The position numbers and the translations under genes were made by a program. From Candidatus Babelota bacterium (GTDB lineage: Bacteria > Babelota > Babeliae > Babelales > JAUPTZ01): DNA of 64,000 nt. Below the pieces are notes generated by a model. That model was not told where the DNA came from, did not search any database, and saw only the letters and a program-made list of their open reading frames with translations. The stretch is from assembly GCA_030917815.1 (NCBI GenBank), contig JAUPTZ010000001.1:2102-66101 (forward strand), in the 5' to 3' direction. This document shows, piece after piece, positions 23,922-26,150 of the stretch (its first letter is position 1; every line of letters begins with the position of its first letter).

Positions 23922-26150
23922 ATGTTACGAGATAAAATTTTTATAATGCTAGCCGCCGTTTTTGTGAGCGGTTTTGTGGTTAATGAGTGTTCGGCCATGG
24001 ACCGTGACGTGTACGGTGCGCAACAGGCGTATATAGCTGCTTCGCAGCTTGCTAACGCAGAAGTACAGAATCTGCGAGCTTCGGCGGTACAGGCTAGAGC
24101 TGACTTGGATGCAGCGGTTGCAAATGGTCGGGCTCGGCTTGATCAATTGAAACGTGATGCTGAGGCCGCGGCCCAGCGAGCGGCAGCGGACGGTGTTGAT
24201 GCGTTGAAAGGCCAAGTGCAACAACAAATTCGGGCAGAACAACAGAGAGTAACTCAAGCGATTCAGGAGTGTGAGCGGAAAAAGCAGGAGCTCGCAGCTG
24301 ATTATGAAGAAAAGAAGCGAGGTTTGACTCGCGAGGTTGAGCAAAAGCGAAGAGAATTTGAAGAAGCAAACAGGCGGTTTGTGGAGCAGCATAAGCAAAC
24401 AACCGAAGCTGATCGTAGAAAAGCCGAGGAAATGCAACGTGCAAAGATTGCTGCGGACGAAAAGTTGCAGCAAGATCAGCAGGCATTTTTGCGAGCTGAG
24501 GCAGATGCTGGACCTGGCCGTCTTAAAGCACTCGAAAAAACTAAACTTGAGGCAGAGCAAGCAAAGCACTTGCAAAAAGTTCAGTTCGATCGTGATAATG
24601 CTGAGAACACCGCAATGCAAGCGTTGAGAATAGAAGCGCTTAAGGGCTCTGCGCTGCGTAAGGGTACCCCAACCGCCGCAGAGCTAGAAGCGGCACCGTA
24701 TAGTGATGAAGATGGTTATGATTACGACGCAATCATTGCCAAAATCAGAGCCGGAGGCACCGACGAGGATGCTTTGCGAGCTGACAAGATGCTTGAGCGC
24801 CGCCAAATTCAGCAGTCGATGGCCGATTATGAGCTTTTCAAGCGCTCTGCCGAAATTTCAGCCGAAGCAAAAATGTTAGAAGACAAAGAAATACAGGCGT
24901 ACGAAGCGGCATTGTTGCCGAAGCGTATTGCGGCACAAGCGGCAAAAGATATTCAAGAGCAAAAAGTTGCTGAAGTGTCGGCGCGTGAAACGGCGTTGAT
25001 GAACAACAAGTTTAAGCCGCTTGAATATAGAAATAACAAAGAAATGCTTAAGATGAAGATGGAAGGGCTCATGAACCTTGCCAAGATGGTTGGTGATGGG
25101 TTTACGCCTAAGAATGTTGCCCTTGCCGCTGCCGGTATCGGTGGTACTTACGGATTGGTCAAGTTGCTTGGCGTTGGTTCCCGTCAGTTGGAACGTATCC
25201 TGAAGCAACCGGTGTTGGTCCGTCATTCTTCACAAGGTGGTCCATTGACTAAGCTATTCCGTTCTATTTTCCCTAAAAAATCTGATCACGCTACCTACCA
25301 TTTGAGCGATATGATCTTGAACCCAGATCTTGCTAAAAAGCTTGAGCGGATTTCAAACATGATCAAGCTGGCTCAACAACATGGCGCACCATTGCCTGGT
25401 GTGGTGGCTTACGGTCTACCGGGTAACGGTAAGACGATGTTCATGGAAGCATTGGCAAACGATTCTGGTATGAACTTTGCAATGATGACCGGTGGCGACG
25501 TATCTGCCTTGCTTTCAAGCGGTGGTAAGAACGCGGCCGTTACCGAAATTCATAAGTTGTTTGACTGGGCAATTACCGCCGGACCAACATTGTTGTTTAT
25601 CGACGAAGCCGATGCGTTCCTTAAGAAAGGCCGTGATGCTAAGTTGAGTGAAGGCTTGGCCGCTGCGATTAACGCCTTCTTGAACCGTACCGGTGCTTCA
25701 AGCAACAAGGTGATGATTGTGTTGGCTACTAACCATCCACACGTGTTCGACGAAGCGGTGGCAAGTCGTATGTCGATCTGGGTTAACTTCCCAGCTCCTG
25801 GCTTTAACGAACGTGCTAAGATGTATGTTAAGTTCCTTGATGACGTGGTTAATGAAGGTGTGGGCGACGATCATACCCCAGTGGTTATTGTACCGGAAGC
25901 TCGTTCAGAAAACTTCGTTCAAGAAGTGGCAAAACGTACCGATGGCTACTCAGGTCGTGATATGACCCGTAAGATCTTCGACTCGTTGCAACGTGAAATG
26001 CTTGCCGAAGGTAAGTTCCAAGTAGATCGTTCGCTCATTATGCAAACGTTGAATGAGATCGATGCACAAGAAAAAGAATTGAACTCGTTTAACACCGTTG
26101 GAAACAATGGTTCGAGTTTCGTCAATCATGCGGCCGCTATCGCTGCGTAA
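23922..26150 (+). CDS. ATAD3-like protein: N-terminal hydrophobic segment, long coiled coil, central TM, C-terminal AAA+ ATPase
   Basis: ATG 23922 is preceded by GGGGGA. The AAA core [30 protein letters not shown]...HKLFDWA...[14 protein letters not shown]...[21 protein letters not shown] closely matches my recollection of eukaryotic ATAD3 ([76 protein letters not shown]). The TM and juxtamembrane region [12 protein letters not shown]...[12 protein letters not shown] parallels ATAD3 ...ILGQPSLIRESS. Confidence 0.8.
   Translation: [742 protein letters not shown]

Follow-up and report, generated by a model that had tools for sequence, protein, structure and literature searches.

An ATAD3-like AAA+ ATPase encoded in a Dependentiae genome

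The stretch of DNA analysed here (the window) comprises 64,000 nucleotides of contig JAUPTZ010000001.1, part of a Dependentiae metagenome-assembled genome (MAG) deposited as Candidatus Babelota bacterium. On its plus strand, at 23,922–26,150, lies a gene whose product is a bacterial relative of ATAD3, a AAA+ ATPase that is essential in animals, is a human disease gene, and is treated as a eukaryotic invention tied to contacts between the mitochondrial inner and outer membranes, to nucleoids and to lipid handling. ATAD3 is a nuclear-encoded mitochondrial protein of eukaryotes; the gene described here, in contrast, is bacterial. On balance, we favour the view that it encodes an ATAD3-family AAA+ ATPase of Dependentiae, built as a bacterial type I membrane protein, and that the family is shared with eukaryotes through an ancient inter-domain transfer. 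Judging from sequence, the part of the protein from about residue 376 to 720 (a helix ahead of the transmembrane (TM) segment, the TM segment itself, the juxtamembrane segment, the AAA+ domain and its lid) is specifically homologous to eukaryotic ATAD3. The parts of the gene and its product are as follows, in window coordinates.

23,922–26,150, plus: ATAD3-like AAA+ gene, complete, with an ATG start; 742 residues plus stop codon
23,922–23,999, plus: signal-peptide-like N-terminus (residues 1–26); MLRDK, a 15-residue hydrophobic core, then NECSA and MD on either side of the likely cleavage point
24,000–25,046, plus: helical, coiled-coil-like ectodomain (residues 27–375), rich in A, E, K, R and Q, without ATAD3_N homology
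25,047–25,271, plus: ATAD3-homologous membrane block (residues ~376–450), made up of pre-TM helix, Gly-rich TM helix and juxtamembrane segment
25,113–25,178, plus: Gly-rich TM helix (residues 398–419), with ALAAAGIGG at residue 400
25,197–25,232, plus: juxtamembrane 12-residue motif, from residue 426
25,302–26,081, plus: AAA+ ATPase domain and lid (residues ~461–720), PF00004 at E = 1.2e-19
25,413–25,436, plus: Walker A motif, GLPGNGKT
25,491–25,556, plus: pore-loop-1 segment (residues 524–545), without an aromatic residue and 5 residues longer than in eukaryotic ATAD3
25,590–25,613, plus: Walker B motif, LLFIDEAD
Within the AAA+ domain and lid: sensor-1 N604, arginine finger R616 and the sensor-2 region GYSGRD (residue 675)
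26,127–26,147, plus: Ala-rich C-terminal tail, HAAAIAA

Kinship with eukaryotic ATAD3

A word-indexed search with the full-length protein matched only the protein itself, words from the coiled coil swamping the candidates, and the C-terminal 354 residues were used as the query. With phmmer, the best E-value (3.7e-49, a similarity far beyond chance) was to proteins bearing PF12037. After three close relatives of the bacterial type, the top matches were dozens of proteins that combine PF12037 with PF00004, at E ~1e-49 and 35–38% identity, and the non-bacterial matches include named ATAD3 proteins of insects, a nematomorph, diatoms and pelagophytes. The best match among PDB proteins, p97, reached ~52 bits for a single domain (~1e-13 per domain), against ~185 bits for the ATAD3 matches. 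When only bacterial members go into a profile, it recovers named ATAD3 proteins of plants, insects and stramenopiles, diatoms among them, at 1e-97 to 1e-86.

A neighbour-joining (NJ) tree of 175 taxa (249 columns of AAA+ domain and lid, Kimura distances with a cap at p = 0.82, 200 bootstraps), with FtsH-like, Cdc48-like and multi-AAA proteins as outgroups, sets the ATAD3-like sequences, eukaryotic and bacterial together, apart from other AAA proteins in 192 of 200 replicates (96%). Two indels have the same distribution. The segment from RTG to sensor 1 is 15 residues long in 110 ATAD3-like sequences, except that it is 16 in five members of a bacterial lineage of ~505-residue proteins (see below), and 18 in 22 of the 33 outgroup AAA sequences; the linker into the lid has at least 42 residues in ATAD3-like proteins, compared with 33–40 in 31 of the 33 outgroups. 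Kinship extends upstream of the ATPase domain, where an alignment of profiles (hhalign) for the protein's own subfamily and for eukaryotic ATAD3 gives the membrane block 99.1% probability (E = 1.5e-18, 76 columns). The TM helix has a Kyte-Doolittle 19-residue mean of 1.44, with one Lys, against a mean of 1.39 for eukaryotic ATAD3. In the juxtamembrane segment P430 and L432 are invariant and V433 and R434 nearly so.

An earlier note on this DNA, made without database searches, had assigned the C-terminal ~350 residues to ATAD3, and the E-value, the clade support and the family scores given below bear this out. The eight sequence blocks that it quoted are all found where it placed them and in the same order, and the ATAD3 counterparts that it gave are carried by the plant and insect sequences retrieved here: an insect ATAD3A homolog has NAFLYRTG where the Dependentiae protein has NAFLNRTG, and the juxtamembrane stretch of plant ATAD3-like proteins (Macleaya, Solanum, Ananas) reads RILGQPSLIRESS, similar to a stretch of 13 residues in the bacterial protein. 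Among the eight blocks are MTGGDV at residue 522, HKLFDWA at 544, the NAFLNRTG just mentioned at 584, and two stretches of 11 residues at 557 and 594. Across 46 sequences K504, D561, E562, N604 and R616 are invariant and R679, in sensor 2, nearly so. The ATPase motifs and the inter-subunit arginine finger are intact, which would make the protein competent to form a hexamer, and AlphaFold2 models residues 460–720 as a classical AAA fold, with a predicted local distance difference test score (pLDDT) above 90.

It might be supposed that the protein is an ordinary bacterial AAA protein (FtsH-, Cdc48-, Vps4/CdvC- or IteA-like) whose likeness to ATAD3 is generic, or else a eukaryotic contaminant. 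The Pfam scan, which reports PF00004 alone, would fit the generic version, as would the PDB fold search, which returns FtsH, Rpt and p97. That search yields these proteins only because, to our knowledge, PDB holds no ATAD3 structure. Membership of an ordinary bacterial AAA family was considered and rejected, with NCBIfam scores of 37–68 bits against cut-offs of 500–1008 (IteA 68.1 against 510, CDC48 53.7 against 802, CdvC 49.4 against 650, PAN 42–46 against 500–750, and FtsH PRK10733 36.9 against 1008). The distance between the ATAD3 and p97 scores, the clade support, the common indels, the homology of the TM and juxtamembrane regions, and the fact that Pfam finds neither a protease domain nor a second AAA domain in the protein all argue against it as well. 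Contamination is excluded by the genomic setting. Bacterial genes flank the locus on both sides (RuvB, a sodium:solute symporter, YebC and YicC upstream; PgsA, PgpA, GyrA and DprA downstream), and the identical protein occurs in NCBI and on four independent Logan assemblies. Base composition and codon usage, which the earlier note proposed comparing with the neighbours, proved native, with GC 0.486 for the gene against 0.479 ± 0.029 for the window, GC at third codon positions 0.468 against 0.458 ± 0.037, and a codon-usage distance of 0.154 against 0.133 ± 0.026, within one standard deviation. Very recent transfer is excluded along with contamination. On these comparisons the generic or contaminant reading can be regarded as refuted, and we give it next to no credence.

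Homology to ATAD3 does not appear to extend over the whole protein. AlphaFold2 predicts helices at residues 31–87, 92–195, 199–242 and 281–391 (pLDDT 55–82), and A, E, K, R, Q and D make up 64% of the N-terminal helical region (residues 27–375; its extent is also given as 27–390). The ATAD3_N domain of Pfam (PF12037/DUF3523) goes undetected in the protein even at E <= 5; a match to ARGLU, in a scan of the N-terminal 497 residues at that threshold, was judged spurious. A hidden Markov model (HMM) of the soluble part, built from 50 eukaryotic ATAD3 sequences between the LER motif and the point just ahead of the TM helix, matches neither the protein nor its subfamily when run with --max. When the two soluble regions are aligned with hhalign, the probability is 1.2% and the alignment covers only the last 18 columns beside the TM helix. 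Some relatives come closer. A metagenomic protein of the ~505-residue bacterial type (P0245), with a signal peptide and GADFSQFK, passes the ATAD3_N cut-off of 25 with 29.1 bits over model positions 148–265; the closest relative of the protein under study (P0079) reaches 20.2 bits against that cut-off (positions 157–265), and five further relatives 15–22 bits. All of these partial matches finish at the last model position, and the boundary of homology therefore seems to lie within the second coiled coil of ATAD3_N, a coil that can still be made out in certain bacterial proteins. What comes before it in ATAD3_N, the N-terminal half with the LER motif and the first coiled coil, is absent, and the helical arm repeats the layout of ATAD3 and not its sequence. 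The earlier note's claim of an upstream ATAD3 layout holds for the TM and juxtamembrane segments and fails for the coiled-coil sequence, and its description of a full-length copy with full domain architecture was overstated. The protein is better described, from its sequence, as a homologous membrane block and motor joined to an analogous arm, with a predicted signal peptide added.

A bacterial branch of the family and the direction of transfer

HMMER, run exhaustively on 1.84 billion cluster representatives, returned 193 proteins at E <= 1e-30, a figure in which multi-AAA proteins and the ATAD3 of eukaryotes are counted. Of the sequences analysed, about 59 are of the bacterial type, with a signal-like N-terminus and without the eukaryotic N-terminal domain; signal-like N-termini are found in about 77–80% of the bacterial-type members, while 10% of eukaryotic ATAD3 have one. 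By sequence, Dependentiae have at least three lineages of ATAD3-like proteins. The subfamily of the protein described here has 10 clusters, which are 41–50% identical to that protein and monophyletic in 175 of 200 replicates. The lineage of ~505-residue proteins has 36 clusters, and a divergent lineage has eight. Named bacterial members are all from Dependentiae, TM6 or Babeliales. Among GTDB species genomes, at least 10 Dependentiae/Babeliales or small-genome MAGs match at E 9e-50 to 2e-30; among the matches listed, generic AAA proteins come next, after a gap, at 1e-15. Viral contigs gave generic AAA proteins alone, at 2e-13 or weaker, and so offer no evidence for a giant virus as vector.

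A paper on ATAD3 evolution lists animals, plants and protists only (PMC3790746), and no publication on bacterial ATAD3 was found in the literature searched; the JGI pipeline labels some of the bacterial members "ATAD3A/B". We are dealing with a known family in a new bacterial variant, a broad and previously undiscussed branch. Of the two sources that the earlier note offered for the gene, an unrecognised prokaryotic lineage agrees with the many Dependentiae that encode such proteins. This one subfamily may have been acquired from a host; its composition is native, however, and the other bacterial lineages keep ancestral characters that eukaryotic ATAD3 lacks.

Several members stand out individually. 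Within the divergent lineage, a 1.6-Mb MAG contig (MFD06714.bin.2.5; locus L011) carries tandem paralogs at 3,272–4,927 and ~5,700–7,150, the second with a degenerate Walker A motif (GPSGCGKR) and a Walker B motif without DE (IYIDNAQ), and this paralog may be an inactive partner subunit. Another member of that lineage (L016, 3,245–4,846), from a MAG labelled Pseudomonadota, has a signal peptide, a TM segment and a AAA domain and scores 196 bits with hmmsearch against the whole TM-to-lid profile, although it lacks the KPxLVRExS and HKLFDWA motifs; the family may extend outside Dependentiae, unless the bin carries a wrong label. The contig of a further member (P0003) is broken into many small open reading frames (ORFs).

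A rare character that is useful for tracing history is pore loop 1, measured between the invariant Gly that follows strand 2 and the Lys, likewise invariant, in HKLFDW. Its states are:

Outgroup AAA proteins: 18 residues in 31 of 33; aromatic in 76%
Bacterial lineage of ~505 residues: 18 residues in 34 of 36 (GADFSQFK); aromatic in 97%
Divergent bacterial lineage: mostly 18 residues; aromatic in 75%
Eukaryotic ATAD3: 17 residues in 46 of 46 (GGDVAPLG); aromatic in 2%
Subfamily of the protein described here: 22 residues in 10 of 10; aromatic in 0%

The ancestral length and aromatic residue are kept in the first two bacterial lineages, which makes their descent from within crown eukaryotic ATAD3 unlikely. 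By this character they would have split off before the animals, plants, stramenopiles and apicomplexans sampled here had their last ancestor in common. The subfamily described here, in turn, has lost the aromatic residue as eukaryotic ATAD3 has, in a segment of 22 residues instead of 17. The lineages can be strung together by mean identity: 33.0% between the divergent and ~505-residue lineages, 37.1% between the latter and eukaryotes, and 34.6% between eukaryotes and the subfamily, which has 32.3% to the main bacterial lineage; the outgroups are nearly equidistant, at 25.5–27.8%.

These patterns bear on how the family came to be shared. Recent capture of ATAD3 from a protist host, with a signal peptide and a coiled coil of new origin in place of its N-terminus and with the other Dependentiae AAA proteins unrelated in origin, would account for the NJ grouping of the subfamily with eukaryotes instead of the main bacterial lineage, for its slightly higher identity to them (34.6% against 32.3%), and for the common GGDV and loss of the aromatic. 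However, that grouping appears in only 54 of 200 replicates, beside long-branched apicomplexans (Cystoisospora, Porospora), and such fast-evolving neighbours suggest long-branch attraction. The subfamily's own fixed insertion of 5 residues and the 41–50% identity among its members indicate that it is old; moreover, composition and codon usage are native and identity to any eukaryote is 35–38% at most. We consider recent capture unlikely. A somewhat less improbable, still tentative idea is that eukaryotic ATAD3 descends from a Dependentiae-like, envelope-spanning bacterial AAA+ ATPase that passed to the eukaryotic stem before the last eukaryotic common ancestor (LECA). Room for it is left by the ancestral pore-loop state of the main bacterial lineages, lost in 46 of 46 eukaryotic ATAD3 sequences, and by the outgroup-rooted NJ tree, which has a paraphyletic set of bacterial lineages at its base; if true, ATAD3 would have its nearest bacterial sister among living groups in the subfamily. 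Alternatively, the gene may have been exported before LECA from the eukaryotic stem to the parasites, with a later second capture giving rise to the subfamily, or the groupings may be artefacts of rate. Bacterial origin, pre-LECA export and rate artefact were judged on NJ with simple distances, too weak a method to choose among them.

The favoured interpretation, an old family held in common by Dependentiae and eukaryotes, has consequences whichever way the gene moved. With the same membrane block and motor and an equivalent topology predicted in an envelope of two membranes, the bacterial branch can serve as an outgroup for deciding which features of ATAD3 are ancestral and which derived, the missing pore-loop aromatic for instance, and the origin of ATAD3, as a bacterial gift or as a pre-LECA export to parasites, becomes testable. 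The branch also hints at a general function at the inner membrane or envelope as the main task of the family, not one specific to mitochondria; alternatively, it may indicate an effector directed at mitochondria, in a phylum that is known for remodelling those of its hosts.

Predicted topology and proposed role in the envelope

The signal-like segment and the TM helix were assigned by Kyte-Doolittle hydropathy. The former, already proposed in the earlier note, is indeed hydrophobic (12-residue mean 2.59), with a positive start, a 15-residue core and small residues (C-S-A) ahead of the likely cleavage point. A cleaved signal peptide and a single later TM helix predict a periplasmic N-terminus and a cytoplasmic C-terminus. 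A Sec-type signal peptide would export the N-terminus, leaving in the periplasm a helical arm of ~350 residues, in which the helices 92–195 and 281–391 would each measure ~15–17 nm. The weakly hydrophobic, Gly-rich helix would anchor the protein in the inner membrane; the juxtamembrane segment and the AAA+ domain would be cytoplasmic, probably forming a hexameric, ATP-hydrolysing ring under that membrane. ATP-driven changes in the ring could then pass through the membrane helix to six periplasmic arms reaching toward the outer membrane. ATAD3 is accepted to point its N-terminus into the intermembrane space and its AAA domain into the matrix, so that the predicted arrangement, N-terminus outside and AAA domain inside, would be equivalent to that of ATAD3 in mitochondria. 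This equivalence makes a role in the bacterium's own envelope, as a hexamer, the most likely one, and the added signal segment would be what a bacterium needs to bring the 350-residue arm across its inner membrane. As in ATAD3, pore loop 1 has no aromatic residue, and classical threading is not expected; the protein is probably not a classical substrate-threading unfoldase.

Several observations weigh against this picture. The marginal TM helix might not stop translocation. ATAD3_N is undetected, as described above, and the helical arm is poorly conserved even within the subfamily. Nor is there a conserved neighbourhood that might hint at a partner: a comparison of ten window neighbours with 11 related bacterial loci by blastp and tblastn gave only AAA cross-matches of RuvB, so the synteny survey advised in the earlier note found nothing conserved, and adjacency to pgsA and pgpA is not a conserved association. 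Of the two outcomes which that note had set against its own assignment, DUF3523 did go undetected, and placement among ordinary AAA families was not what the tree gave. Finally, the Ala-rich tail, common to two other proteins in the window, could be a secretion signal.

Such tails are a feature of the bacterial branch. Of 59 bacterial-type ATAD3-like proteins, 15 have three or more Ala among their final six residues, vs 0 of 93 eukaryotic ones and 0 of 44 neighbouring ORFs at other Dependentiae loci; Ala-rich tails are also present in L010, L014, P0251, P0048 and P0004. The other two window proteins with such a tail, both large, are encoded at 311–5,497 on the minus strand (PQAAIAA) and at 21,812–23,764 on the plus strand (AKGAAA). 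The tails resemble degrons of the ssrA type (LAA/AA) and could be a built-in signal for degradation by ClpXP or FtsH, or a C-terminal sorting signal. The window was also searched for a transfer-messenger RNA, whose tag could have been set beside the tails, and has none.

Dependentiae are intracellular parasites of protists, and a different destination for the protein has to be weighed. It could be a mimic aimed at the host, exported by Sec, carried on in outer-membrane vesicles or released, and active on the mitochondria of the host. There it might, for instance, insert into the organelle or assemble together with the host's ATAD3, and so help the parasite to remodel or recruit mitochondria. 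Chromulinavorax destructans makes the host mitochondrion wrap around itself, sheds vesicles, and has signal peptides on 44% of its proteins (PMC6561590), all of which would suit such a mimic. So would the many eukaryote-like putative effectors in the window (ankyrin-repeat, leucine-rich repeat and cPLA2-like proteins and farnesoic acid O-methyltransferase-type (FAMeT) repeats), the derived eukaryotic pore-loop state of the subfamily, a TM helix marginal enough to pass through Sec, and the tail common to two other large window proteins. On the other hand, what is missing and variable here is the N-terminal half of ATAD3_N, with which ATAD3 faces the outer membrane and the cytosol. An AAA domain depends on ATP, and this one would have two membranes to cross; no secretion system beyond Sec is described for C. 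destructans (PMC6561590). The family is, moreover, broad, endowed with paralogs and old in Dependentiae, and its main lineages are unlikely to come from crown eukaryotes, which a housekeeping role in the envelope fits better. We regard the mimic as unlikely, on a par with the bacterial-origin idea above, and retain the envelope role as the preferred reading.

The gene, its surroundings and related systems

The open frame is uninterrupted on the plus strand from 23,790 to 26,150, and the public database gene call starts at GTG 23,790, giving 786 residues. ATG 23,922, which lies within this frame, is preferred as the start because the close relatives all begin directly at the hydrophobic signal-like segment, leaving the extension 23,790–23,921 without a counterpart, because a GGGGGA stretch stands 5' of the ATG, and because a terminator-like hairpin would otherwise fall inside the coding region. 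The two hairpins bordering the gene are:

23,792–23,812: terminator-like hairpin and T-run, just past the upstream gene and inside the longer GTG call
26,167–26,202, plus: strong hairpin resembling an intrinsic terminator, 17 nt past the stop codon, then UUUGCGUUUGG

The second has a 16-bp stem and a folding energy of −31.6 kcal/mol (z = −5.6; 0 of 200 shuffles fold equally well). The transcription unit therefore probably ends with the ATAD3-like gene, which would not be co-transcribed with pgsA, 555 bp downstream. The intergenic region ahead of pgsA (26,151–26,704, 555 bp) begins with this hairpin and has further GC-rich palindromic stretches, such as cctccccccgatgggggag near 26,365. An Rfam scan of the window found three tRNAs only, and no family match in this intergenic region.

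Directly upstream and in the same orientation lie two genes at 20,094–21,809 and 21,812–23,764 (both plus), for proteins of 571 and 650 residues with signal- or TM-like N-termini. Neither has a Pfam or NCBIfam match, and they are not found beside ATAD3-like genes elsewhere; the 650-residue protein contains DCGFNAISF and an acidic C-terminal region. At the start of the window (311–5,497, minus) is a protein of at least 1728 residues with seven copies of PF12248 (E = 5e-74), the FAMeT-type repeat, which is eukaryote-associated and unusual in a bacterium. Other candidates for eukaryote-like or host-interaction proteins are a cPLA2-type lysophospholipase (PLA2_B; 43,790–45,826, minus), a leucine-rich repeat protein (47,654–50,104, plus), an ankyrin-repeat protein with a signal-like N-terminus (32,534–34,174, plus) and an ADP-ribosylglycohydrolase (14,135–15,544, plus). 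GyrA (27,763–30,432, plus) has a strongly acidic C-terminal extension of ~70 residues, rich in Asp, Glu and Ser (DDDDTDDTTGGSDSESPESEEQRASEDEGD).

Among known systems, the closest is eukaryotic ATAD3 itself (human ATAD3A/B, Drosophila bor, plant ATAD3 / SHOT1-binding ATPases). With it the Dependentiae protein has in common the NAFLxRTG and GxSGR motifs, the indels, a Gly-rich and weakly hydrophobic TM helix followed by the juxtamembrane (K/Q)PxLVRxSS, the order of helical arm, TM helix and AAA domain, and GGDV with a pore loop 1 free of aromatics, in a segment of 22 residues as against 17. Unlike ATAD3, it is encoded in a bacterium, has a predicted N-terminal signal peptide, and lacks the Pro/Gly-rich start, the FDxxxLERAAKA motif and the first coiled coil, with a longer, unrelated and variable helical region in their place; its Walker A motif is GLPGNGKT where ATAD3 has GPPGTGKT, and it ends in an Ala-rich tail. 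The ~505-residue Dependentiae/TM6 proteins (P0056, and P0066 of TM6 GW2011_GWF2_28_16) have the same layout of signal peptide, helical region, TM helix, KPxLVRESS and AAA domain, many with Ala-rich tails of the same kind. They form a separate lineage, however, only 32% identical in the AAA region, with a short ectodomain (~150 residues), the ancestral length and aromatic of pore loop 1 (GADFSQFK), and a deletion of 2 residues past Walker B. FtsH, a membrane-anchored bacterial AAA protease and the best structural match in PDB, also has a AAA domain of the classical clade, which lies on the cytoplasmic side of the inner membrane, and a periplasmic portion, a topology that is predicted for the ATAD3-like protein. 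It differs in its pair of N-terminal TM helices, its aromatic pore loop and its C-terminal M41 Zn-protease, none of which are found here. For the arm, TolA offers an analogy only, with an inner-membrane anchor and a long helical domain rich in Ala, Lys and Glu, thought to reach across the periplasm; TolA lacks an ATPase domain and draws its energy from TolQR, and no sequence kinship between the two proteins is claimed.

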